The notes under the pieces were generated by a model. It was not told the DNA's origin and did no database searches. It saw only the letters and a program-made list of their open reading frames with translations. Positions 19,397-64,000 of a stretch of DNA of 64,000 nt are shown piece after piece; positions within the stretch are counted from its first letter, which is position 1, and the number at the start of each line of letters is the position of its first letter. This DNA comes from a virus, in the IMG/VR virus record IMGVR_UViG_3300027644_000003, positions 1 through 64,000 of that record; one strand, written 5' to 3'. Made by a program: the position numbers and the translations under genes.

Positions 19397-19703
19397 CCTG
19401 GTCTATCCAATCGTCTAGTGTTAAACCTTGTTTTTCATACTTACGCTTTGCTGCATTTCTTTCTCTGTGAGACATTCCCCCAAAGATTCCGTGCAACTCG
19501 TCGTTTATGATAGCTTCTTTAAGACATTCTTTGCGAACTGGACAAGCTGGTCGCCCGTCCTTTCCCCAACAAATTGCCTTAGCTTGAGTAGCTATCGGTT
19601 TGTATAAAGCCTTGTCTCGTGGAGGAAAAAAGATTTCTGTATCTTCTCCTCGGCACTTAGCCGAGTATCTCCAAGCCCAAGTAGGCTCGTCATCATGTTC
19701 CAT
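19374..19703 (-). CDS. whiB: WhiB-family transcription factor
   Basis: AKC...FFP...AKAIC...CPVRKECL...GIFGGMSHRER. Confidence 0.92.
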   Translation of the reverse strand: MEHDDEPTWAWRYSAKCRGEDTEIFFPPRDKALYKPIATQAKAICWGKDGRPACPVRKECLKEAIINDELHGIFGGMSHRERNAAKRKYEKQGLTLDDWIDQDGKYGQT

Positions 19704-29126: not shown

Positions 29127-29377
29127 AGTAATGCTCGTTTCCGTCGTCTTAAGTTCTTCCGGTCTTGAGGAGTTGTACCGCCCCAAACACCGTCCAAACT
29201 ACTGTCCGACATAGCATACTCTAGGCAAGCAGTAGTCAGCGGACAGCTCTGGCATACAGCCTTTGCCTTGTTCACGCTCAAACGGTGGTTGTAGTCCTCA
29301 GGAAAGAACAACTCTGGATCCTCTGACTTACATAATTGAGAGCCATTAAATGGTGCTGATCCCAAATAAAGATCCAT
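29123..29377 (-). CDS. whiB: WhiB-family transcription factor, second copy
   Basis: LCKSEDPELFFP...AKAVCQSCPLTTACLEYA...GVWGGTT..DR. Confidence 0.93.
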   Translation of the reverse strand: MDLYLGSAPFNGSQLCKSEDPELFFPEDYNHRLSVNKAKAVCQSCPLTTACLEYAMSDSSLDGVWGGTTPQDRKNLRRRKRALL

Positions 29378-47067: not shown

Positions 47068-47694
47068 TTAGAACTCTTTTGCTGATCCTGCAGTTGTCAA
47101 TGCTTGAGCGTACTTAGCATCCCAACCTTCGTGAACAAGAGTCATTTCTTCGACCATCAAGCTATTTCCACCAGCATCTAGGTTGCTGTATGAAAGGTTT
47201 GTAATCCAAGCATTGTATACCCGGAAACGAATAGCTACGTGAGGTGATGCTGAGTTTACTCCAGAAAGAGTTGCACTCTCACCAGGTAAGCCAGCAGGGT
47301 TTGGATGACTTAGAACTTGTAGTTCCAAATCGCAACGGAAATCCGCTCCAATACCCGCTTTAGCTCCTGAGCTAATTAGTGAGAATAGGCGCTTCATCCA
47401 ATCAAGTTGTGAAGAATCTCCCAACATTACGCCTTTGCTAAGGGTAATTGGACTAAACGAAGTTTGTCCGGGTAGCTGGTGAACAGTGGTGTTGTATCCA
47501 CCTTCACGGTATTGGATTGCTTCAGTAGAGACGGTTAGGCCTGATACTGAGGTAAATCCCATTTGAGCATTAAACGCAAACTTTGGGGTTGCGGTATCAG
47601 CTGTTGGTAAAAAGTTTACTAAGAACCGAAAGTTACGAACTGGATCGGTTGTTAAAGAACTTAGTACGTTAGTAAAAGCTAGTCTATCTGCCAT
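47068..47694 (-). CDS. Tail tube protein (T4 gp19-like)
   Basis: DPVRNFRFLV...GFTSVSGL...YREGG...PGQTSFSPITLSKG...YNAW...LDA...EEMTLVHEG. Confidence 0.95.
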   Translation of the reverse strand: MADRLAFTNVLSSLTTDPVRNFRFLVNFLPTADTATPKFAFNAQMGFTSVSGLTVSTEAIQYREGGYNTTVHQLPGQTSFSPITLSKGVMLGDSSQLDWMKRLFSLISSGAKAGIGADFRCDLELQVLSHPNPAGLPGESATLSGVNSASPHVAIRFRVYNAWITNLSYSNLDAGGNSLMVEEMTLVHEGWDAKYAQALTTAGSAKEF

Positions 47695-47713: not shown

Positions 47714-49240
47714 CTACGCCGAAGCGCTTCCGGTGATCTGCCCAATGCTGATCACTACGAATTCTGCAGGATATTCAACAGCCACACCAACTTCGATGTT
47801 TACTCGACCATTTAAAATATCTGTAGGTGTATTGTTTGTAGCGTCACATCTTACGTAGTACGCCTGCTCTGGAGATGCACCGCGTAGGCCACCCTGTGAC
47901 CAGTAATTACGAAGGAAGTTTCCAATCGCAGTACGAAGTTGATTCCAAAGAATTTCGCTGTTGTTCTCAAATACCGCAAAACTGCTACGGTCGGTGATTT
48001 CTTTCTTCAAGAAAATCATTGAACGACGTACGTTGATGTAGCGTTCTCCGGTTGAGTTGTTGAGTGTGCGACCACCCATGATTACAATACCGCCACCAGG
48101 AACGTTACGAATAGCGTTTACTGGCTTTGATGCTGCATTGAGGTTATCTAGTTCTGTATTTGTTAGGCTGCGCTCTAGAGCAACTGCGCTGTTAATTTTT
48201 GTACCAAAACCTGCTGGGGTCTTGAATACTCCACGTGAAGCGTCTGTTTCTAGATACTTACCTGCTGCAATTGCTGCTGGTCCAACTACGCGAGTAGCAC
48301 CTGGTGCTGACTTTAGTAGATCTGGGATTACTACCCATGGGAAGTAGATTGCTGCGTTTCCGCCATCTACCGCTCCGCAACCATCGATTGCGTAAGTAAT
48401 AGCTTCTGCTGATGTACTTCCTGCTGGTGGATCGATTAGCGCAAATACATCGCCACGAGCATCTGCATAAGCAGTAACATCGTTATCCAAAAGAACCTTA
48501 GCTGCACGAGCTCCAGTTTCACCGCCTGATGCAAAAGCATAAGATGCGTCTGCGTTAATCATAATCATTGGGTTAGTAATTGGATCAAATGTTGCTAGAG
48601 CAGTTTGGTAGCTAGCACGTGTAGGTGCTGATCCGTCTGCTCCTGAGGCAAATGTCTTGACTCCGGCAACTTCTGGCATGTTAGCTGGGGCTGCTGTACC
48701 TGAGGTTAGGTTAGTAAGTGTTACGTAATATGAAGCTGAGTTTACGTAAGCCACGCAATAGCGGCTGTTTGTTGTAGACATGCTTAGATCAGTAAACTGT
48801 TCTAGGATGCCATTTGCATCTGAAATAATCAGATTAAATGTAGTTGTAGAAGCGGCTGTAACTTCTGCTGTTAATGCGTTGCCCCAAGCACCAGCACTCT
48901 TTGCTGTTACTCGAAGTGTACTAAGTGGGGTACCTGCACGGTCACGAAGAGTTACTGATGCTGCTGTAGCACCTGAACCTACTACGCGCTTAATGTAAGC
49001 ACTACGTCCGCCATTTGCAAAAAACGAATAGATCGACCAGGTAGCTGGGTAGCTATCTGAAAGGCTTCCAAAAGTTTTTCCAAAGTCGTACCAGCTTTGA
49101 ATTAGAACTGGTTCTGCTGTAGGTCCTTGTGCAAATGCACCGAGGAACGCTCCACGAGCCTGTCCGTTATCTGCTAGCGCAACTAGTTGTGGCAGAGGTA
49201 CTTCATTGATGAAGACTCCTGGTCTGCTGTAACTTGCCAT
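47714..49240 (-). CDS. Contractile tail sheath protein
   Basis: YSRPGVFINE, FFANGG, GVFKTPAG, RYINVRR, FENN, PAEFVVI. Confidence 0.96.
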   Translation of the reverse strand: MASYSRPGVFINEVPLPQLVALADNGQARGAFLGAFAQGPTAEPVLIQSWYDFGKTFGSLSDSYPATWSIYSFFANGGRSAYIKRVVGSGATAASVTLRDRAGTPLSTLRVTAKSAGAWGNALTAEVTAASTTTFNLIISDANGILEQFTDLSMSTTNSRYCVAYVNSASYYVTLTNLTSGTAAPANMPEVAGVKTFASGADGSAPTRASYQTALATFDPITNPMIMINADASYAFASGGETGARAAKVLLDNDVTAYADARGDVFALIDPPAGSTSAEAITYAIDGCGAVDGGNAAIYFPWVVIPDLLKSAPGATRVVGPAAIAAGKYLETDASRGVFKTPAGFGTKINSAVALERSLTNTELDNLNAASKPVNAIRNVPGGGIVIMGGRTLNNSTGERYINVRRSMIFLKKEITDRSSFAVFENNSEILWNQLRTAIGNFLRNYWSQGGLRGASPEQAYYVRCDATNNTPTDILNGRVNIEVGVAVEYPAEFVVISIGQITGSASA

Positions 49241-51996: not shown

Positions 51997-52473
51997 TTAA
52001 GGCTGAATGAAGAAAAAGAAAGCGTTAGCCAGTACGTTATTAAATGGGTCTGGGAACTCTGAGCGTACAAACTCTTGGTCAGCCGCAAAGAATAGACCTT
52101 CGTTCTCTACCCCCTCAAAGGATTCCCCACCTACTGTGGTTTCCCAACCCAGGTGTTGATATGCAACTAGGCTTATTACGTAGTCTGCGTCATCTGTAAA
52201 TTTTTTAGGGGTTTGTGTTGGTTGAGGACCAGCATAGATATCTAAGTGCTGCCAGTTAGGGATTAACGCAGGGTTATTAAACATTTGCCTAGCTACGGGC
52301 AAAAGCTTTTCGTGAAGCATGCGAAGCTCAGGTGTATCTTTTAGTTGCAAGACTCCGTAGCCAGACTCATGAGGCGGTCTAGCTTTCTTTAAAGCTTCGT
52401 GGTGCTCTAAGGCGTATTTTTGCAGGTACTCAAAGTCTCGTTCTGAAAAAAGGTCTTGTATAACCTTATTCAC
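51997..52473 (-). CDS. 2OG-Fe(II) oxygenase-like fold lacking the HxD motif
   Basis: LLPVARQMF...LIPNW..LDIY.G...YVISLVAYQ..GW...VGG...ENEGLFF...R.EFP...FFFF matches phage 2OG oxygenases, but the iron-binding His residues are absent. Confidence 0.55.
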   Translation of the reverse strand: MNKVIQDLFSERDFEYLQKYALEHHEALKKARPPHESGYGVLQLKDTPELRMLHEKLLPVARQMFNNPALIPNWQHLDIYAGPQPTQTPKKFTDDADYVISLVAYQHLGWETTVGGESFEGVENEGLFFAADQEFVRSEFPDPFNNVLANAFFFFIQP

Positions 52474-52744
52474 TTTCAGGCCCCTTAATTTCTTCTACCT
52501 TACTCCATTTACCAATAGGGCATTCAGCAGGTGCAATCTTAACTTTAAGGTGCATAAAACATCCACACTTTTTACAGTTCTGAGTTAGTTTAATTAAGTG
52601 GGCACATCCGTTGCAAATCTCAAGGCGTTTCTTAGCAACTTCATCGGTAGTGCGAGGAACGTTTTTATCTAAAAGATCCCAAGGCCTAGTGTCCCCTAAG
52701 TTCTTTTTATACTTTTGCCACAGGGATAAGTTCTCTTCAGACAT
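52466..52744 (-). CDS. DUF6171-like Cys-cluster protein
   Basis: RLEICNGC...CKKCGCFM..K......CPIGKW. Confidence 0.8.
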   Translation of the reverse strand: MSEENLSLWQKYKKNLGDTRPWDLLDKNVPRTTDEVAKKRLEICNGCAHLIKLTQNCKKCGCFMHLKVKIAPAECPIGKWSKVEEIKGPESE

Positions 52745-52753
52745 ATTGTTCTC

Positions 52754-53239
52754 CTAGATTTCTGACCACATATTTAGGTCTTGGTTCTTAAGCATCGATT
52801 TTGGGGCGATATTGAATCCTATCATAAAGGTATTTTCATGACTATAAGTAATCTTTTTTCCTGCTTCCCAAAGGTAGATGTCTCCCGCAGCCAACAGATT
52901 AGATACCCCACCCACAGTTATAAAGCTGCCCTCTTCGGCGGTTAGTATAAATACGCCAGAGAAACAAGGGATCCTAACTCCTCCGGTGTCGTACCAAACG
53001 TCTGTTCGAACCTCGCTTATTAACTCGGATGATAGATAGAAAGTTGAGTGGGTCCGACTCAATTCATAGTAGCTGCAGGAATCTTCTAGTAACTTTTTGA
53101 TTTCTCTATGAGCATAGTTAATTGACATATCTTCAGCAATAGGTACATTTGAAGAAAATACTTTTACCGGCTTAGTCAATAAGCTTAAGAGCACCTGCTC
53201 CTCTCCCTTACTCATTAAATCCCCCAATTCTTTGACCAA
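52754..53239 (-). CDS. Cupin / 2OG oxygenase-like protein, degenerate
   Basis: WYDTGG...CFSGVFIL...GDIYLWEAG...IGFNIAP; no HxD. Confidence 0.45.
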   Translation of the reverse strand: MVKELGDLMSKGEEQVLLSLLTKPVKVFSSNVPIAEDMSINYAHREIKKLLEDSCSYYELSRTHSTFYLSSELISEVRTDVWYDTGGVRIPCFSGVFILTAEEGSFITVGGVSNLLAAGDIYLWEAGKKITYSHENTFMIGFNIAPKSMLKNQDLNMWSEI

Positions 53240-53717
53240 ACCATATTAACGGAAAAGCTGGGTCTCTGGGAGGCTCTGCCTCGTCGTAGTCAATTCTTCC
53301 GCCCTTGATTGCAGGGACGTAGGAAGATTCTCCTAGTTCAGCCCTAGTTTTGTCATAGATCCTATCGGTCTGCTTACTTCGATCCCCAGTCCCATCTATA
53401 TTGATGTCGAACTTAGAAGCAAAAAAGTGTTTTAAAAGTATGCCAAAAGGTACCCAATAGCCGTTACGTCTATGTATAGGGTTCGTGTACATTCTTTGAA
53501 CTTGGTAGCCATTATCAAAACAGGCATACATATCGGGGTAGGCATAGGGCATGTACTCAGAAAGTATTACTGTGCCGGTAGGGTGCTCATCGTTCTTATA
53601 TATTGAGACAATATAGGTAAACAAAGTACTTTCTGGCTCAACACAAACATGGACCCAGAAGCCAGTCAGCTTCTCTGGAAAATCAAAGTTTAGGATTTGT
53701 GCGCCGTTTAAGTTCAT
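53208..53717 (-). CDS. GNAT-like protein
   Basis: RMYTNPIHRRNGY resembles acetyl-CoA-binding motif A. Confidence 0.45.
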   Translation of the reverse strand: MNLNGAQILNFDFPEKLTGFWVHVCVEPESTLFTYIVSIYKNDEHPTGTVILSEYMPYAYPDMYACFDNGYQVQRMYTNPIHRRNGYWVPFGILLKHFFASKFDINIDGTGDRSKQTDRIYDKTRAELGESSYVPAIKGGRIDYDEAEPPRDPAFPLIWFGQRIGGFNE

Positions 53718-53719
53718 AG

Positions 53720-56074
53720 TTAGTCAACCGTATTGGAGTCGTGAGTCAACATCCTTTCGGTAAAGAATATATCATAAGGTTCACAGTCGATAGAAACCAC
53801 TTCGTGATTCACATCTACTTTTTTAAGGATGCTAATTGAGATCCAGTTGCGCTCAGCATATGACCATATGAGGTCTGTATCTTCAAGATCAAGTGCTTTA
53901 ACAAACGAGGTTACGTCTCCACGCTTGACCATAATGTAGTGAGTGTCTGAGAATATGTCTGAATCTACAATGACTGCCCACTTAGATATACGAGTACGGA
54001 TGTTTACAATCTCAGTTTCTACAAGGTTAACTTGTGGGTTTTGAGCAATCCATTCAATAAGGTCTATATCTGTTACAAGTAAGTTGTCGTACGGGAAGGT
54101 AGCGATGTCTGCAGAAAGCAGCTTATCTCCAACTTTAAGATCATGAGCAGCAACTAGCCCATCTTTTGTACGAACTAAAGTATTAATGTTAATACTTTTT
54201 AGTCCACTTTCGCCAAAGCCAGGGCCAAAGAAATCAAGATCAAGAGGTGGAAGTACCGTCTCTGTAGTACCTCCAGTTGAAGTGTCTGTTTCTACAAAAG
54301 TAGTACTTCCATCAGGGTTGTTAGTAAAGGTAATTTGTGTTCCAGTCTCTGGATTTACAGGCAACGTTGTGGTTTCAGGTTGCGTTGGAAGTGTGGTGCC
54401 GTTAGAAGCTGCTGGACCTGTAGGGCTTGTAACAGTCGGCTCAACACAAGGACCATAAATATCTGCGCAACCGCCTCTAGTAATGCAGTATGTTTGCGTA
54501 CCGTTGTTTCCGCAATTTTGTGTTCCAGAACCATAGATGCACTCGGTACAGTTAATTACAGGTTCAACTACCGTTGGCACACCGCAAAAATTTCTACCCG
54601 CACTACGTGGGGCACAGTTAGAGTAGGAACAAGGGTCATATTGGTTAACCATTAGAGTTCCATAACCATCTGCACCAACGTTTATACAATAGCTTGCATC
54701 ATCATCTATACAACAAGGTGTCCCAATAGCTGGAGCTACACAAGCCGTGTATCTGTCTGGACAGTTTGCTGGGGTCCTAAGAATTGTTCTAGTACCAGCT
54801 CTACCATCTGAAGTTGTGCATGGATCATCAGGTATTTCTCTAACAACTGGACAACTTGGTGTTCCCGGGTCAACCCAAATCTCTGGACACACAGCATATT
54901 GACCATTAGTTGTTATGCTGTTAGTACAATTTGTATTTGTAGGTGGGTCTACTAAATTAGTTGTTGAGTATTTATTACAACTAGTTACATTTCCGTTAGT
55001 CCTACATACTTCTGTTACATAGTAAGTAGTGGTTACTGGCCCACCGCCTGTTGGTCCGGTTACTCCTGTTGGTCCAGTTGGTCCAGTTGGAGCTTGAACA
55101 GTACACTGTACAAAGTTGTATATATTGTTGCAGCCTTCAGGAGTTACACATTTGTATCTAATTGCTTTACCTGAAGGACAGCCCGCTTCAGCGTATTCTT
55201 CTTCTCCACTACCAACTCCACAGTATGCGCCACCACATTTAGGAATTTCTCCAACACAGTCACCAATAACGGTGTCTTGAACTGGAGTACACCAACTTTG
55301 GAAAGTTCTAGAAGTTACTAATCTTTGTCCAGTACTTAAGTATCCACAACCCTCATAAGTAGCAGAGGTTGATTTTGGAATACTGCAATTTTCTGTAGTA
55401 GAGCAAGAAGGAAACGAAATTATTCCTGCAGCTTCACAAACCCACTCACCAACTCCAGCAACAACGGTGCCAGTAAAATCGGTATCTTTGAGTTCATTTA
55501 TACACGCTCCAGTAGAGAATGGGCGAAGAGTACAGTAGTACTTGACGTTAGGCTGTAAAGGGTTGCAGCATGAGTACGAAACTTTAACGGAACTATCACT
55601 ATAGCGCTTTGTTACACGTTTTGCGTAACCACTAGTACATCCAGAAATTCCACCCCAAAGTTCGCAGTCTCCTATTTGTTCACTAACTACTTGAATAATT
55701 GCATCTTCTTTAGTACACACTCCTGCTGGAGCTGTATAGGTAATGCATCCCGGATCTGTTTGACAGGTGTAGGGCGCAGTTCTAGTTCCTAAAGTAACGC
55801 CATCTGCTAAATAGCAAGGCTCTGTTGTAGGAAGAATAATGCCGTTAGTGCCGTTTAAACAATAGTTAGGCCGGTAACAAATAGTCTCTGGAATAGCTGC
55901 GGGCTGTTGTCCTGGAGCAGTACAGGTAGATCTCCATGTTCCGCTTATTCGAACATAAGATTGGTTTACTGTACGCCAAGTTCCGTTTACTTTTACATAT
56001 CCGCAAACACCATTAGAAGGAGAGTCTGTGGTGACTACCTTCCAAGCACCGGCAACTTTAGCGTATGTTGCCAT
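53720..56074 (-). CDS. Cys-rich tail-fibre adhesin-like protein with a C-terminal Hint domain
   Basis: N-terminal Y(A/V)KVxGxW repeats; about 46 Cys; short GPT run; C-terminal SININTLVRTKDG...DLKVGD...FSDTH...VVSIDCE...THD. Confidence 0.8.
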   Translation of the reverse strand: MATYAKVAGAWKVVTTDSPSNGVCGYVKVNGTWRTVNQSYVRISGTWRSTCTAPGQQPAAIPETICYRPNYCLNGTNGIILPTTEPCYLADGVTLGTRTAPYTCQTDPGCITYTAPAGVCTKEDAIIQVVSEQIGDCELWGGISGCTSGYAKRVTKRYSDSSVKVSYSCCNPLQPNVKYYCTLRPFSTGACINELKDTDFTGTVVAGVGEWVCEAAGIISFPSCSTTENCSIPKSTSATYEGCGYLSTGQRLVTSRTFQSWCTPVQDTVIGDCVGEIPKCGGAYCGVGSGEEEYAEAGCPSGKAIRYKCVTPEGCNNIYNFVQCTVQAPTGPTGPTGVTGPTGGGPVTTTYYVTEVCRTNGNVTSCNKYSTTNLVDPPTNTNCTNSITTNGQYAVCPEIWVDPGTPSCPVVREIPDDPCTTSDGRAGTRTILRTPANCPDRYTACVAPAIGTPCCIDDDASYCINVGADGYGTLMVNQYDPCSYSNCAPRSAGRNFCGVPTVVEPVINCTECIYGSGTQNCGNNGTQTYCITRGGCADIYGPCVEPTVTSPTGPAASNGTTLPTQPETTTLPVNPETGTQITFTNNPDGSTTFVETDTSTGGTTETVLPPLDLDFFGPGFGESGLKSININTLVRTKDGLVAAHDLKVGDKLLSADIATFPYDNLLVTDIDLIEWIAQNPQVNLVETEIVNIRTRISKWAVIVDSDIFSDTHYIMVKRGDVTSFVKALDLEDTDLIWSYAERNWISISILKKVDVNHEVVSIDCEPYDIFFTERMLTHDSNTVD

Positions 56075-56077
56075 GGC

Positions 56078-56359
56078 TTAAACGTACTTCAGCCAGACAT
56101 CCCCATCAGAACCACCAGTAGGTGTTCCAGTAGATGTAAATATATTTCGTACAACTCCAGAGCTAGTACTTGCAGTTGTAACTGCGCCGTTAGTTGCGCT
56201 TACTGCACCAATAGCTAAAGGTAGAACGGGGTCTAATCCGCCCTGAGCATGCTGGGTAGCGTGAAGAGATGCAGCAGCACCAATAGATGCAGGATCAGCT
56301 TGAGCTGTTCCAAAAGACTCCCAAGTGTTTGCTTGTTGATTCCATCTGCGTAAACCCAT
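56078..56359 (-). CDS. Short tail-fibre subunit
   Basis: HATQHAQGGLDP and VRNIFTSTGTPTGGSDGDVWLKY are fibre-type motifs. Confidence 0.7.
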   Translation of the reverse strand: MGLRRWNQQANTWESFGTAQADPASIGAAASLHATQHAQGGLDPVLPLAIGAVSATNGAVTTASTSSGVVRNIFTSTGTPTGGSDGDVWLKYV

Positions 56360-56952
56360 TAGTTAACTCCAAACACTAGTACGGTGCCGGCTGTAAAACC
56401 ACCGGCATCAATAATTAACTGAACAGAACTAATTGGCTGTACCTGTAACCAGGTTCCAACTTTAAGAACAGGGGTTATGTTATTGTTAACGAGTCTGTAC
56501 ACGCCGTTTGCTACGCATGTAGAGTATCCTTGCGTATCTTGAGTGTCTTCAAAGGTAAAAGAAAATTTATTTGTGGATATTCCAGATTTAATAAGTGGTA
56601 GTTCTATAATTTCTGTAGCCACTAGTCCAGCAGAATCAATATAACTAACGTTATCATTATTACAAGTTACTCTAAGAGTTGCATTTGCAGAAAGTACTAG
56701 TCCCCGTATTAAAATGTAAAGGTCTTTGTAGTCTGAGTTTACAGATAGGTTAACTGATCTTCCAACAATTGTTGCTAAGTTTAAAGTTTGTAACAGGTTT
56801 TTACCCGCGTTATTTTGAGTATCGGAGTCAATCCAAACATCTCCGTCAGTAGCATATGTTGGTAGAAACGGACCAATATGAATAGTTTTACCGGGACGAT
56901 TGTCCGTAAACTGAATTGCTCCTACGTCTACTCCGTTAAGTTTAACTGCCAT
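56359..56952 (-). CDS. Putative tail-fibre-associated protein
   Basis: P...DGDVWID; YKDLYILI...FTAGTVLVFGVN. Confidence 0.65.
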   Translation of the reverse strand: MAVKLNGVDVGAIQFTDNRPGKTIHIGPFLPTYATDGDVWIDSDTQNNAGKNLLQTLNLATIVGRSVNLSVNSDYKDLYILIRGLVLSANATLRVTCNNDNVSYIDSAGLVATEIIELPLIKSGISTNKFSFTFEDTQDTQGYSTCVANGVYRLVNNNITPVLKVGTWLQVQPISSVQLIIDAGGFTAGTVLVFGVN

Positions 56953-57287
56953 TAGTCGGTAATCTCCGATCCAAAGGCGTTAAATGATAGGTTATTGGTA
57001 GACGCAAAAATGTAAATAGCGTCACCAGTTCTTAAAGTAATTCCTAAAGTGTAGGTAATTGTAGATGTGGCGGGTATAGTGCTATCAAAAACAATATACT
57101 GCTTAGCGCTGTCTACGGCGCCATTTTCACGAACAGAAATTCTGTATGTGGATGAGCTACTTCCTCGGTTACAAATAGAGATAGTAGACACTACTGTTTG
57201 AATGCCTGTTCCAACAGGGCCGTAAAGCGGGGTAATTGTCGTGGTAACTGGCGCTGATTGAGCTAGGATCTTATACGTTGTTGCCAT
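56952..57287 (-). CDS. Small virion beta-sandwich protein homologous to the N-domains of the collagen fibres
   Basis: YKILAQSAP...VVSTISICN...YIVFD...LGITL..GD. Confidence 0.7.
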   Translation of the reverse strand: MATTYKILAQSAPVTTTITPLYGPVGTGIQTVVSTISICNRGSSSSTYRISVRENGAVDSAKQYIVFDSTIPATSTITYTLGITLRTGDAIYIFASTNNLSFNAFGSEITD

Positions 57288-58347
57288 CTAGGGTCTCCCG
57301 TGAATAAAAGGCTAAATTAGACTGAAGCCTAAGTTCGTCTGGATTTAATTCTACAGCTTTAGTGCCGTAAGTCAGGGCTTTCTCAAAGTTTCCTAGATTG
57401 TAGGCCGATATAGCAGCGTAGTCATAGGGCATATATCCCCAAGCAAACTCTTCACATAGATACTCTAAAGGTTTGTCTGTAATAGATAGGGCATTTTCTG
57501 CCATAACTAGACACTCTTCCCACCTGTTTTGTTGGTAGTAGAACTCCGCCAACTCTACATAGGCCTCTCTACGAGTAGGAGCTTCCTTAACTGCTTTCTT
57601 AAACCACTCTTCTTTTTCCCTAGGGTCAATCTCGAGTTTGGCTATGTAACGCATAGATGCGGCACGCTCTGGGGGCCAAACCGCTTTTGGTAAAGATAAG
57701 TGACGTTTGAACTCTTCTGTTGCTAATGAAGCTTGGCCATGAAAAAACAACTCTCGGGCGTAATAAAAAGCATTACGATCATCTGAAAGATCCTCTAGCA
57801 CAGCTTGTTGCAAAAGAGGCATATATTGAGAACGAGACTTTGAATCATCTGCATGGTGATGGATCTCTAATTTAACCCAACCTTGACGCTCTTCACTTTG
57901 ATTAGTTACTAGAACTTCGTGTACTGGATGCTTCCAACGATACCCTTTTCGTGTGTGGATTTTATCCCCACCATATTGAAGCCCTGGAGTACCATCTGCT
58001 TTCCAATTCCAAGTGTATTGGTAACGAGGGCGAGTCCAACCTTCTTGATGAGCTTTTTCTAATTCTGGGCGCCAACCCTCAATAAGGACTTCATCTAAGT
58101 CTAATGCAATGCAATAATCTATGTCTAAGGGTATAGCGGCTAAAGACGCATTACGAGCATCATCAAATCTCCAAGGTTTTACGCCAATATTTACTACGTT
58201 TATACCCAAAGACTTGGCAAGTTCAACAGTACTGTCGTTAGAACCAGTATCAGCAATAAGCAAGTAGTCAGCGTCTTTTGCCGATTCATACCAAGTTTTA
58301 ACAAACTTAACTTCGTTTAGAGCAATCGAATAGACTGCAACTTTCAT
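57271..58347 (-). CDS. GT2 glycosyltransferase with C-terminal TPR repeats
   Basis: VYSIALNE...DTGSND.T...PWRFDDARN...LDLDE...VHE, followed by TPR-like helices. Confidence 0.92.
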   Translation of the reverse strand: MKVAVYSIALNEVKFVKTWYESAKDADYLLIADTGSNDSTVELAKSLGINVVNIGVKPWRFDDARNASLAAIPLDIDYCIALDLDEVLIEGWRPELEKAHQEGWTRPRYQYTWNWKADGTPGLQYGGDKIHTRKGYRWKHPVHEVLVTNQSEERQGWVKLEIHHHADDSKSRSQYMPLLQQAVLEDLSDDRNAFYYARELFFHGQASLATEEFKRHLSLPKAVWPPERAASMRYIAKLEIDPREKEEWFKKAVKEAPTRREAYVELAEFYYQQNRWEECLVMAENALSITDKPLEYLCEEFAWGYMPYDYAAISAYNLGNFEKALTYGTKAVELNPDELRLQSNLAFYSRETLDGNNV

Positions 58348-58547: not shown

Positions 58548-58667
58548 TTACTCCTCTGTTGGGTAGACAAGATCGTAGCCAATTACAGCCCCAGTCTCAT
58601 CCTTTACTTCGAATTTTTCTGCCCCAGTTTCTGGGTCAAGTCCTAAACTTACTTTAGTTACGGTCAT
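58548..58667 (-). CDS. 39-aa acidic peptide
   Basis: Absent from the track: [39 protein letters not shown]; ATGA overlap with the fibre gene. Confidence 0.7.
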
Positions 58668-60139
58668 ACTAATCTTCCCCAAATTCCTACTGTGCTAGTT
58701 GAATAGGCAGTAGCGCTGGCTGGTAGGTCTGCAGTTGCTGCTACTAAACCTGTCATTCTTGGAGCTAATGTGCTCAAAGTTGCTGGAATAGAGTTAAAGG
58801 CTGTGTACACAGTACCTACTGTAGCAGCCACAATTACTACGCCTATTGCATAACGTGTTCCAGCGGTAAGCGTATAGCTTGCTGCGTATCCACCAGTAGT
58901 ATTAAATGATCGTGTATAAACAGTATTAACTGCGCTAAAGATTGTGGTGTCTGAGGCTGTTCTAGCAACAAGAGTTGCATTACCTGAACCGTCTACCGTG
59001 TATAGACCAAATCTAACTAAGCTCTGACCAGTTGTTTGTGTTGAGGCAGAAGCAATAGTAATAGAGCTAACTGAGGTAGTTGTTCGTGGAGTAAAGAAAG
59101 TAAAGTAAGTAGATCCACTAGAAGGTGTTCCCGTAAAGTTTCCAATACGTGGGTACACATCAACAGCAGTTGCTGATTGATTTACTGAGCCAATAAGAGG
59201 AATTTCATACGCAGAGGTATCAAATGAAACCGTAGAAGTTCCGACATCGTAAAGTACTGGAGAGGTTGCTGCCACTAGTCCTTTTGGACCTGTTGGACCT
59301 GTTCCACCAGTTGGACCTGTTACGGTCGATGGAGGTCCAGTTGGACCTGTTGGGCCCGTAACAGTGGACTGTGGACCAGTTGGACCGGTAGGCCCCGTAA
59401 CTGTAGATGGAACAGTAGAGGTTGGCCCGGTAGGACCTGTTGGTCCAAGAATGTTTCCAGTGTTAAGCCATTGAGTTCCAGACCATACCCAAAGATCTCC
59501 ACCAATTAGGTAAGCATCTCCAATAGATCCTGTTGGATACGCAGCAACAAGGGCCGCGTAAGTTGCAAAAGAACCAAGAATGTTAAGTCCAGCACCAATA
59601 GCTCCGGTAGGTCCTGTGGGACCTGTAGGTCCTATAAAACCAGTATTTCCAGTTTGACCGGTTGCACCTTGTGAACCTGTTGGTCCAGTAGCTCCAACAG
59701 AAATAGAAATTTTCCAGGTAGATCCATCCCAAAAAGCAATTGACTGGGTTACAGCATTAATCCAAATATCACCAATAGACGGAAATGCCGGAGGTCCAGC
59801 GTTATAAGTTACATACTGATTACCGTTGTTTTCGTACGCACCGTTTACGTAATAAGAAAGGTTATCACTACTACCAAGTACAGTTACAATATCGCCAATA
59901 TTAATAGCAAATCTAAATGTTTCAAAAGATTGACCCGCACCAACAGATATGTTTTTAACAATGTAAATTCCTGCGGAGGCAAGAGTTGCTCCATTAGGGA
60001 TTACAGCAACGCTAGAGGTTGCGTTAACTTCTCCTTTATTGGCAACAATAACGGATACAACATAACCACGTGCGGCAGTAACAAGATTTGTTTGTACATC
60101 CTTTAAAGGATTGGCGTTTCCTACGCGGACTACTGGCAT
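58664..60139 (-). CDS. Collagen-like (GPT repeat) tail fibre protein
   Basis: Interrupted (G-P-T)n runs, [13 protein letters not shown] knob, beta-rich C-terminal domain. Confidence 0.88.
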
Positions 60140-60149
60140 TTATTTACCC

Positions 60150-61769
60150 CTAACCAATAACCGTAATTGTGCCATTCATTGATGAATGGAGTGAACATAT
60201 ATAGTATAAAGTATTCGGGGCACCGGCCGGCACCGTAAATGTAATTATGCCCGCTCCTGTTCCCCCATTTGTTACTCCTGTTGAGTAAGTAAGGTTTGAG
60301 TTGTAAGCGCCTGGAGTTGTTTGAAAGTAGAATGGGTGGCTAGGAGCGTTTATAGTAAAGTAATACGTGTAACCCCGTACAAGGGTTATTGCTGGATTAT
60401 TACTAGTTCCATCAATTGTGTAAGTACCGCCTGATGGACTAGTTACTAAAAAGTTTTTTGCTACGGTCATGCCTGTTGCACCCGTTGCCCCCGTTGCCCC
60501 CGTTGGACCTGCAACAGTTGAGGCTGCTCCTGTAGGGCCAGTTGGTCCGGTAACAGTACTTGCGGCACCAGTTGCTCCGGTTGGTCCGGTTGGACCACCT
60601 GACGGACCTGTTGGGCCGGTAGGACCTGTTGCGCCAATAGCTGCGGCTTCACCAGGAATACCTTGAGAACCCGTAGGACCAGTAGGACCTGTTGGTCCCG
60701 CTACTGTGCTTGCCGCACCTGTAGGGCCAGTAGGACCCGGTATAACACTCGCAGCTCCTGTAGGACCAGTTGGCCCCGTAGGTCCTCCTGAAGGACCTGT
60801 AGGTCCGGTAGGACCATCAATACCTGCAGTACCTGTTGGACCAGTTGGACCAACACATCTAACTCCAGCAGGCCAAGCCCCACTTGTTTTTGGTCCATAA
60901 ATAGTGCTACTAGCAGTGTCTATGTAAAATTGTCCGTCAACGCCAATAATATTTGTTGGGGGTAGAAGGCCGGAAAGTATTCCAGAACCAGCTGGACCCG
61001 TTACACCTTGTGCACCAGTTGGGCCTGTAGGGCCACCTGAAGGACCTGTAGGTCCAGTAGGACCAACTAGGGGTCCAGCATTTTGCCAAACAGTGTTTGA
61101 CCAAACATATAATTCAGTTCCTACTACATAACCGTCACCGTTAGTACCACCTGTTCCATGTGCGGCTATAAATAGTGCGTATGTTGAGTAATAACCTTTT
61201 ATTACTAAACCGCTTCCAGTATTACCTGGAGCACCAGTTGGTCCAGTTGCACCTGAAGCTGCAGCCCAACCTGTTGGAGTTTTAAACTCAATATAGTTTA
61301 AGTCTGTGTTGTATCTCCAGTAACCTGTTTCTGCAGCAGCTGGGCGTTCTGCCGTAGTTCCAACTGCAGGATAAATAACATTATCGTTACCCCTAATAAT
61401 TTTATTAGTAAAGGTAATAGGTACATTGTTAATACTGTATTCGTTATTTTGATCCATACCTTGAATAACAAAAGAAGTGCCTGCGGTTGTTGATCTAACT
61501 AGTACGGTGTCTCCCGCATTTACGCCAAATTTAAAAGTTTCAAATGCCTGCCCTAAGCCTACCTCTAGGTTAGAGGTAATGTAGGCGTATCCACTTGGTT
61601 GAGATACTCCTTGAGGGACAACCCAAATATCTACTTTAGTTGCACTAGTAGTAGCAGCAGTTAAAGTATTTGAAGCAATAACGGATGCAAGGTATGACGT
61701 AGTTACGTTATACAAAACATACGAAGTATTAGCCGCAGGTGTGAAAGCACCAAGTCGAACAATCGCCAT
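60150..61769 (-). CDS. Collagen-like (GPT repeat) tail fibre protein with a cupredoxin-like C-terminus
   Basis: Extensive GPT/GAT triplets; C-terminal HPFYFQ...[11 protein letters not shown]. Confidence 0.88.
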
Positions 61770-61779
61770 GGTCTCCCCC

Positions 61780-64000
61780 TTACGCCTGTGCTTCAGTCCA
61801 CGTTAACTTAGCGGATGTCTGGGTATTGTTACCTGTTAAACGAGATACAGCAACGGTTAGAATATCTGGACCGTCTGGGAACACCGAGTCTCCACCAAGG
61901 ATAGAGTTTGAGAGCTCGAACAGTTCATCAATGTTTACGTTAGTAGCTGAGTCAGTACCGGCTGCACCTGCTGCACGGAAGTTGTAGATCTGAGTTCCAC
62001 CAGAAACAGTATCGTTACCAGTGTGAGAAATGATCTGAGTTAGAGATGGTGCAACAACTCCAGTAAAGTTAAGGTTGTTTAGACGCGGGTTAATAAGAAG
62101 TTTTACGTCTACAAGTTGAGTAGTAGATACCGCAATTTCCTTCATACGTAGCTGCATTCGGTTAATAACATCTCGATCTCCCAGCTTACCTGTCAAACCG
62201 CTAGACACCGATGGTGATAGACGAATTGATAGTAGTGGCTGGTAAGCAGCTCCAGAAGCATTGTTATACGCACCTGCTGGATAGATGTAATAGGTGAACT
62301 GGCTGTTACCTTGAGTCTGTATGTCAATTGGGAATTGACCGGCACCAGAGCCAAACAAAGCGTCTGCTTGGGTAGCGTGCAAGATCATGTTGTTTGCATC
62401 AACTGTACGTACAAAGTAAGTAAGTGCATTTTGCAAGTTTGCATAAGGATGGGCTGGATTTGAGGCTGTATTGGCCGTAGCTGGGTTGTTACTAGCAGCA
62501 CCAATTAGACCTGTACGAGTACGTCCTTCAAATACAACTGGATCTCCGGTAGCAAAACCGTGAGCAGGAATGTTGATTTGGTTAGTAGTAGTATTTATCG
62601 CTGTAGAACCAAAGGTCTTAGTGGTTGTTCCTGCAATAGCAAGAGTGTTACTATTTTGAGAGAACAGGTAAGCCTTATCATCATCAAACTTACCGTCCAT
62701 CATAACTGAGGTACCCCAGTGGAATAGGAACGGAATGTAAGTAGGTTCTGAGAAAGTTACAACTTCGTAGCGACCAGGTAAGTTACCTGAACGGAAGTAA
62801 GACTCGAGCAACTTGTTATTGTGGACATACTCGTGAACGTACTTAACTTCACCGTGGGTGTCTTTAAATCCGTAACGAATCTTTCCAGCACCGTACCAAG
62901 AGTAGTCAATGTAGGCCATCTGGATCGTACCAAGGTTAAGGTTGTAACCTGTAACTCCAGTACCATCACAAACATCGATGCTCCACTCTTCTTGAGGAGT
63001 ACGAGTGTCTACTGTCTTAGTAACAATAATACCTGATTTAGCTGGAGTAAATGAGTGAGGAGTACCTGCACCAACATCTGCAATAGCTACATTTGATACT
63101 GAATCTGGGCTCGCTGTTAGAGCAAAGTTATTATTATCAACTAAGTTAATGTAGTAGGTACGTCCATTAATAAGACCTCCAATAGGAGTTCCGTCAATAG
63201 AGTTATAAACAACTGGCAACAAGTCACTAAAACCATGGCCTACGATAGTAAAGGTATCGTTAGCAACGTTTACTACGCCAGTAGTTCCGTTACCAGGGTT
63301 AAACTCTTTTTCAGTTCCAGTAGAACCCTTATATTCTGGCTTAATAGTTAAGCGAGTATCACTGTCAATAGATGAAATTTTGTAAGATTGGCCACGTAGA
63401 ACAATGTAGTCTCCAACATCTAGTTGCGTAGTAAAGGTAGTTCCACTACCAAATACAAACTCGCTACCTTGTAGGGCGGCCACTGTTCCAGCAATCTGTT
63501 GAGTAGAAGATCTACGAACTGCCCAGATCTTTTGACCATCATATTCAAAGAACAAGCCGTTCTGGAAATCAAACATACCTGCACGTACAGCTCCGTTTGT
63601 CCAGTTTTTTACATAGAACTGTGGGAAACCGTAAGCTTGAGCCTCAACGTTTCCGGCAGCTGGCAAAGTTGTTGTTGCAAGGCAGGTAAAAATAGTAGGG
63701 CTAGTAACAGTTACTTGGAAGATACCGTTATAGAGTGTGCTTACAGCACCTGTTGAAGTTTCAGCTTGTGAAATTTCAATGTATAGGCCGTTAATCAAAC
63801 CGTGAGGTCTACGAGTAGTAGCTTCAAAGGTAGTAGAGCTAATACGCTTTAAATCTTCAAGGTCAATTGTTGGCTTAAAGTTAATACCAAACGATGTCTG
63901 CAAACCCTTACCTGACTGGTAACGGAAGTACTTACGTGTTTGACGAATAATTTGAGCAAATGAACTTCCAATACCCACAGACATTTCAACTCCACCATCA
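61780..64000 (-). CDS. Large virion structural protein (tail/baseplate); 5' end lies beyond the window
   Basis: The frame stays open past the track's Met to the window edge (DGGVEMS). [23 protein letters not shown], repeated HG..TGD.V modules. Confidence 0.8.

Follow-up and report, generated by a model that had tools for sequence, protein, structure and literature searches.

A BIL- and intein-like Hint domain at the C-terminus of a partly hypervariable tail-module protein in an IMG/VR virus genome

Introduction

Inteins, Hedgehog, BIL domains and toxin release are the known settings of Hint chemistry. Among the described systems, the one closest in structure to the domain reported here is the type A BIL domain, which forms an N-terminal thioester and undergoes C-terminal cleavage via Asn cyclisation, with cleavage as the main outcome and some splicing (Amitai 2003 and Dassa 2004, as summarised in PMC4031507). 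Type A BIL domains combine an N-terminal nucleophile, a block-B His and a cyclisable C-terminal residue in a small Hint fold without an endonuclease, and they are found in variable, surface or adhesion-type proteins, not in conserved enzymes. Here we describe a BIL-like domain in IMG/VR virus record IMGVR_UViG_3300027644_000003, of which positions 1 to 64,000, the whole stretch of DNA analysed, are referred to below as the window. It forms the last 158 residues of a 784-residue protein, and these residues are a genuine Hint domain, similar to both BIL domains and inteins.

Several further systems are useful for comparison. In inteins whose last residue is Asp, Gln or Glu, splicing follows the usual four steps and it is this residue that cyclises (PMC4031507). 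In Hedgehog/Hog (1at0, 6tyy) and BUBL BIL2 (6y75/6tmm), a Hint fold lies C-terminal to the functional part of the protein and is freed from it via an ester or thioester. Hedgehog depends on a sterol-recognition region behind the Hint domain and lacks a C-terminal cyclising residue, while BUBL BIL2 uses splicing chemistry to conjugate a ubiquitin-like domain to a substrate Lys via isopeptide bonds (PMC8616854). In long filamentous proteins, PT-HINT (PF07591) is a Hint domain with the role of a releasing peptidase (PMC3482391); it precedes and releases a C-terminal toxin domain. Finally, the Peptidase S74 fibre chaperones, an analogy in function only, are conserved C-terminal self-cutting modules carried on variable fibres (PMC7824862); they rely on a Ser-Lys dyad and are unrelated in fold and chemistry to a Hint acyl shift. 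In our literature search, we found no paper describing Hint domains as end-modules of phage tail, fibre or adhesin proteins, and the work on phage Hint chemistry that it turned up concerned ordinary inteins in terminase, ribonucleotide reductase or helicase genes.

Results and discussion

A Hint domain ends the 784-residue protein

Positions 53720-56074 of the window form, on the minus strand, a single open reading frame (ORF) of 784 amino acids, within which 53720-54196 hold the codons for residues 627-784 together with the stop codon; all features of this gene are given on that strand. The original prediction, made by reading the letters of the window, had described a domain that starts K/SININTLV with Ser as its nucleophile, has FSDTH as block B and ends in THD plus SNTVD, and that follows a Thr/Pro linker and LPPLDLDFFGPGFGESGLK. 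The translation reproduces every one of these features exactly. The Hint domain proper extends from Ser627 to Asp779 (53738..54196). Its boundary reads ...TETVLPPLDLDFFGPGFGESGLK/SININTLVRTKDG, such that K626 is followed by S627-ININTLVRTKDG, with the nucleophile Ser627 encoded at 54196-54194. Block B is DIFSDTHYIMV, which contains the Ser709-x-x-His712 motif (His712 at 53941-53939), and the protein ends MLTHD/SNTVD-stop, with the penultimate His778 and terminal Asp779 at 53743-53738. The five-residue tail SNTVD that follows, a "mini C-extein" in which Ser780 is a possible +1 nucleophile, lies at 53723..53737, and the stop codon TAA at 53720-53722. Since this TAA is followed, after 2 nt, by the ATG of the next gene in a different frame, the short tail is real. 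Read-through into the downstream gene, which would turn that gene into the true C-extein, was rejected for the same reason and because the short tail and stop codon are conserved in all relatives.

The fold was less evident from the single sequence. A Pfam search with the query alone gave sub-threshold matches only, to PT-HINT (E=0.005, or 0.005-0.007 across searches; 17 bits, below the 27.7-bit gathering threshold) and to Hint_2 (E=0.05), and there was a weak match to the BIL structure 2lwy from C. thermocellum; in scoring under the Pfam thresholds of all Hint families, the domain differs from BIL domains. An exhaustive search of 1.84 billion cluster representatives yielded 119 related clusters (79 at E<=1e-10), and a family profile was built from 72 of these. 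Compared with PDB sequences, this profile matched the phage mini-intein gp41-1 (E=2.2e-8), a PolB split intein (9e-8) and 2lwy (2e-7), as well as the KlbA, DnaX, RadA and CDC21 inteins. Blocks A, B, F and G could be aligned with known Hint members, which places Ser627 over Cys1 and Asp779 over the terminal Asn of inteins, and 18/72 family members reached Pfam Intein_splicing.

Structure prediction gave the same answer. An AlphaFold2 (AF2) model of the domain and junction residues ~607-626, made on the family alignment, had a mean predicted local distance difference test (pLDDT) score of 88.9 and a predicted template modelling (pTM) score of 0.83, with the modelled junction being low-confidence or disordered (lowest, <50, at model residues 6-14). 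The best PDB match of this model in Foldseek was 2lwy (E=1.7e-7, TM 0.82 on target), followed at rank 2 by Tetrahymena BUBL BIL2 (6y75; E=2.6e-7). Further matches included gp41-1 (6riz) and the DnaB, VMA and Prp8 inteins, with Hedgehog at ranks 20-24 (E ~4e-5). Overall, the BIL and intein matches span E=1.7e-7 to 1e-4 with probability 1.00, 45 PDB matches fall at E<=1e-3, and ranks 1-50 as listed are BIL, intein or Hedgehog structures throughout. The Hint fold on which the original prediction depended, a pseudo-two-fold beta horseshoe with its two termini side by side, is thus present by AF2, Foldseek and family profile alike, and the match lies well above chance.

Catalytic residues are conserved across a divergent family

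To count residues, we excised and aligned the domain from the 89 cluster representatives in which it is complete. Position 1 holds Ser in 65/89 and Cys in 21/89; the first residue of the block-B motif is Ser in 66/89 and Thr in 22/89 (S/T in 88/89), and the block-B His is kept in 85/89. The last Hint residue is Asp in 55/89 and Asn in 27/89, the penultimate residue His in 55/89, Tyr in 15/89 and Phe in 12/89, and the +1 residue Ser or Thr in 41/89, leaving 48/89 without a +1 nucleophile. These positions covary: Cys1 occurs with His-Asn in 19/21 cases, and Ser1 with (His/Phe/Tyr)-Asp or Tyr-Asn. In a maximum-likelihood tree, the 21 rows of the Cys/His-Asn clade are separated from the 68 of the Ser clade with split support of 100/90. 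The query falls within a 31-row subclade in which every row has Ser1, (His/Tyr)-Asp and Ser or Thr at +1, although branches reach ~1 change per site.

In inteins, position 1 is normally either Cys or, alternatively, Ser. Of the residues that the original prediction had called non-canonical, SxxH (replacing TxxH) and His-Asp (replacing His-Asn) are unusual, but Ser1 is not. In architecture, size and nearest structure, the query agrees with a type A BIL domain. Relative to such a domain it has all three substitutions, Ser for Cys1, SxxH for TxxH and His-Asp for His-Asn, and in addition conserves a Ser at +1, a position at which type A BIL domains are defined as lacking a nucleophile. It thereby holds the full class-1 set (Ser627, Ser709/His712, His778, Asp779 and Ser780), made up entirely of oxygen nucleophiles, in a cysteine-poor domain of 153 amino acids. 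The retention of a nucleophile, a general base, a cyclisable end and, locally, a +1 nucleophile would be hard to explain without chemistry. Fixed as they are over deep divergence, Ser1, SxxH, His-Asp and Ser+1 may represent a natural all-oxygen, Asp-cyclising toolkit, with a possible use for protein engineers as thiol-independent self-cleaving or ligating tags.

The distance of the Hint domain from the C-terminus is nearly always 0-12 residues. Among family members outside the window with tandem or extended ends (P0111, P0103, P0105, P0141, P0151, P0118 and P0142), P0111 has two tandem Hint domains, the second without an N-terminal nucleophile, and some subclade members extend beyond HD/S by 30-40 residues with a common L..LYQQWK motif, or by 94 residues in P0142. 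Distant members have the canonical Cys...His-Asn arrangement. One of these comes from a cultured phage: gp111 of the Erwinia Alexandravirus jumbo phage pEa_SNUABM_33 (L001:3014-4453), a collagen-like "virion structural protein" with a fully canonical Hint domain (...SGC/IVFGS..., FTHEH, ...LAHN/TDIVAKAEKK) and a 10-residue tail. Only Erwinia jumbo-phage proteins were matched by tblastn, at 24% identity, and a megablast search of 50,697 phage records with the 12 kb surrounding the gene gave no match. In 185,579 prokaryote species genomes we found one close relative (L033), on the 9.6-kb contig JBBRXZ010000043.1 of a Saccharimonadales metagenome-assembled genome, which is most likely a phage fragment binned into that assembly. 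As judged from these sequence searches, the Hint caps form a large and essentially phage-only family, for which we found no descriptive paper. In this, and in its fixed position at the extreme C-terminus with a tail of 4-5 residues, the query family departs from type A BIL domains.

The domain is probably a cap that removes itself

Taking residue conservation together with known Hint chemistry, from which all of the following steps are derived, we consider that the domain is probably an active BIL-like cap that removes itself through N-terminal cleavage at Lys626/Ser627, followed either by mini-splicing onto SNTVD or by hydrolysis. In this scheme, Ser627, aided by Ser709 and His712 of block B, would undergo an N-to-O acyl shift that converts the Lys626-Ser627 peptide bond into an ester. 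This ester could be resolved by transesterification to Ser780 and cyclisation of Asp779, aided by His778, as in class-1 splicing, such that SNTVD would become joined to Lys626 and the 153-residue Hint domain would be freed. Alternatively, the ester could be hydrolysed, with or without C-terminal cleavage, which is the main outcome in BIL domains. N-terminal cleavage is predicted to leave Lys626 as the new C-terminus, and by both routes the mature protein would end just past the hypervariable Cys-rich segment and linker that precede the domain. The Hint domain would then be a conserved module for folding, assembly or timing that is subsequently discarded, like the self-cleaving fibre chaperone domains.

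The original prediction had reasoned that the missing terminal Asn speaks against canonical splicing and had favoured autoproteolysis or Hedgehog-like attachment to an external nucleophile. The first of these arguments does not hold, because inteins ending in Asp, Gln or Glu go through the same four steps (PMC4031507). Since Asp-ending inteins splice by Asp cyclisation, the His-Asp end alone gives no push towards Hedgehog-like transfer. The expectation of autoprocessing itself is strengthened: across ~89 divergent clusters, the nucleophile, the block-B His and the terminal Asp/Asn are strongly conserved, which speaks for a real reaction. Ser780 at +1 is part of the SNTVD that the original prediction listed, but it was given no weight there. 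With His-Asp followed by a Ser, and the +1 residue always Ser or Thr in the subclade, internal resolution (mini-splicing onto the five-residue tail, or coupled N- and C-terminal cleavage) is at least as likely as transfer.

Several observations weigh against self-removal. In one third of the family, Tyr, Phe or Leu takes the place of the penultimate His, and members beyond the query's clade carry no nucleophile at +1, which implies that the C-terminal reaction cannot be general to the family. The conservation of the domain as a whole goes beyond catalytic need and could reflect a lasting structural or partner-binding role. In addition, reactions that use a Ser nucleophile and a terminal Asp usually run more slowly than those with Cys and Asn.

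A conserved cap follows a hypervariable segment

The protein that carries the domain consists of a conserved N-terminal body (residues 1-330; 55085..56074), a hypervariable Cys-rich segment (residues 331-606; 54257..55084) and a linker that overlaps the end of this segment and runs up to the Hint domain (residues ~561-626; 54197..54394). The linker is Thr/Pro-rich over residues ~561-606 and continues as a Gly/Phe/Pro junction over residues ~607-626; across the family its sequence varies while its composition is conserved. Among 43 close relatives, identity to the query is ~0.8 for the N-terminal body, 0.13-0.40 for residues 331-606, 0.82 for Hint residues 627-779 and 0.93 for tail residues 780-784. 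With the Hint domain and tail as conserved as the N-terminal body, and a hypervariable segment directly before the Hint domain, the protein is arranged like fibres that expose their tip when a C-terminal module is removed. Residues 331-606 are probably the receptor-binding part of the protein and residues 1-330 probably its virion-attachment part.

The N-terminal body begins with three Y-x-K/R-V/I-x-G-x-W-K/R-x-V repeats, and residues 1-606 contain 46 Cys. Residues 1-50 gave weak PHROG matches, and the one weakly matching PHROG family is labelled "virion structural protein" and no more; a search of the language-model atlas with residues 1-600 returned nothing usable (best score 0.75). Elsewhere in the family, binding modules are common (PASTA in 20/72 and FN3 in 13/72 members, and also PKD, CBM96 and Ig). 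The host protein is most likely a minor-tail or receptor-binding-type protein, and the label "adhesin", which derives from the tail module, the hypervariable segment and the PASTA/FN3 relatives, is plausible.

The same data bear on the idea that the module is catalytically silent, serving as a C-terminal knob, docking or assembly domain that stays on the virion protein. It would account for conservation that covers the whole domain and not the catalytic positions alone, and for the fact that the Hint domain is the sole part common to three N-terminal architectures, as if it contacted conserved phage machinery; the Erwinia homologue, moreover, is annotated as a virion structural protein. That annotation, however, covers the whole protein and tells us nothing about its C-terminal end. 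Nor would a fold without catalysis be expected to keep Ser or Cys at position 1 (86/89), the block-B His (85/89) and a terminal Asp or Asn (82/89), or to show covariation between Cys-HN and Ser-xD. We therefore regard a silent module as unlikely.

It is highly implausible that the domain is instead a genuine mobile mini-intein that happened to land near the C-terminus of its host gene. Such an element would fit the four filled class-1 positions (Ser1, SxxH, His-Asp and Ser+1) and the best profile match to gp41-1 (6qaz/6riz), and the query does share its fold and its complete class-1 set with mini-inteins that end in Asp (PMC4031507). It is not, however, inserted in a conserved host protein, shows no sign of mobility and, at 153 residues, has no homing endonuclease, while its "C-extein" is just 4-5 residues long. 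There is no Hint-less, and hence no empty, allele among 47 homologues of residues 1-330 (431-1372 amino acids), all of which end in a Hint domain. Furthermore, it recurs as the very last domain of proteins that are otherwise unrelated: MLTHDS is invariant over at least three unrelated N-terminal architectures, namely Cys-rich (the query), FN3-type and PASTA-type. Most family members also have no +1 nucleophile. These observations support the conclusion that the Hint domain is not a homing intein.

PT-HINT acts on the domain behind it, whereas only five residues follow the Hint domain here, and we saw no sequence or structure match to S74. If the caps do excise themselves, as we favour, fibres would have a second route to maturation, chemically distinct from that of the S74 chaperone domains. 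The caps would then also show where many receptor-binding proteins truly end, a point of importance for predicting host range and for engineering.

A GNAT-fold gene accompanies the Hint gene

The gene that starts 2 nt past the Hint gene stop (53208..53717, minus strand) encodes a 169-residue protein with a probable GNAT fold. It has no Pfam match, and a profile search against PDB sequences was empty. Its language-model (atlas) features are those of GNAT acetyltransferases, and its AF2 model (pLDDT 80.7) retrieved, in an exhaustive VIA structural search, a top 50 that is nearly all GNAT, at Z 5.3-7.3, under the tool's caution line of 8; Foldseek gave a weak match only, to AAC(6') at E=0.05. It is thus VIA and the atlas features, and not sequence, that point to a GNAT identity. 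The acetyl-CoA loop, HRRNGYW, is degenerate in distant copies, and the disordered C-terminal peptide, E-PPRDPAFPLIWFGQR (E-PPRDPAFP-IW; tail E146-PPRDPAFPLIWF), is strikingly conserved and looks like a docking motif.

The gene lies next to the Hint gene in every locus of the Ser1/His-Asp type for which downstream sequence is available (L003-L006, L009, L010, L011-L020 and L026; weakly in L028), and this synteny persists down to 29-37% identity. When compared with a GNAT-like profile using hhalign, the genes that follow the Tyr-Asn-type Hint gene (L029) and the His-Asn-type Hint gene of Erwinia phage showed no relationship to it, such that the pairing is not family-wide. It may reflect function or merely shared descent. 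So constant an association with a GNAT-fold gene can be tested as a lead to what might be a new partner in maturation or ligation.

This neighbour is relevant to the Hedgehog- or BUBL-like alternative, in which an external nucleophile attacks the Lys626-Ser627 ester and the new C-terminus of the fibre becomes covalently attached to it. Candidate nucleophiles would be a Lys or the N-terminal amine of another protein of the virion, a component of the cell wall or a small molecule, and the GNAT-fold protein might guide the reaction. The structurally close BUBL BIL2 sets a precedent for isopeptide conjugation by splicing chemistry (PMC8616854). Most of the family outside the query's clade, having no +1 nucleophile, would need water or an external nucleophile, and each Ser1/His-Asp-type Hint gene examined has a GNAT-fold gene behind it. 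Among GNAT-fold enzymes, some take esters as acyl donors, and an aminoacyl-tRNA-dependent peptide synthase is among the structural matches of the 169-residue protein. The query, however, owns an internal resolving set, Asp779 and Ser780, that is invariant in its clade, and the five residues behind its Hint domain leave no room for a sterol-recognition-like or other adaptor region of the kind on which Hedgehog depends. On the side of the partner, its absence beside the Tyr-Asn and His-Asn relatives and the degenerate acetyl-CoA motif of its distant copies speak against a role in transfer, and the synteny may be plain inheritance within one phage lineage. Overall, we consider transfer to an external nucleophile improbable.

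A more specific version, which we rate as very doubtful, would make the Hint domain an ATP-free ligation device that passes the Lys626 ester to an amine or hydroxyl of another protein in the virion or of the cell wall of the host; the GNAT-fold protein, always encoded next door, might act as the acyl-transfer catalyst or adaptor. Were it true, the result would be a covalently anchored phage fibre, and BUBL- or Hedgehog-like Hint chemistry would operate in virus assembly or adsorption.

Two other genes recur near Hint-capped genes. A DUF6171 Cys-cluster protein (52466-52744) and an unannotated 158-residue ORF (51997-52473), both on the minus strand, have relatives downstream of Hint-capped genes in distant phages without the GNAT-fold gene (L024, L029-L031), beside Hint domains of the Tyr-Asn and His-Asn types.

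The Hint-capped gene lies within the tail module

The source record is a 99,469-bp virus genome, complete according to CheckV, with one copy of the Hint domain. The Hint-capped gene sits inside the tail module, with the tube (47068-47694) and sheath (47714-49240) on one side, a GT2-TPR glycosyltransferase (57271-58347) and collagen-like tail fibres (58664-63984) on the other, and the hub and tape measure at a greater distance. Three small genes (56078-57287, minus strand) separate the glycosyltransferase from the Hint-capped gene and encode proteins of 111, 197 and 93 residues, the order of which is conserved in all close relatives; the first of them has a weak tail-fibre PHROG match and a weak DUF7617 match.

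As to the host, the genome carries two WhiB-family genes on the minus strand (29150-29338 and 19452-19673; 70 and 65 bits, above the Pfam cut-off), its GC content is 41-45%, and its sheath is closest to that of Streptomyces phage BRock, at 37%. Together, these features point to an actinobacterial host and suggest that the record represents an uncultured actinobacterial myovirus.

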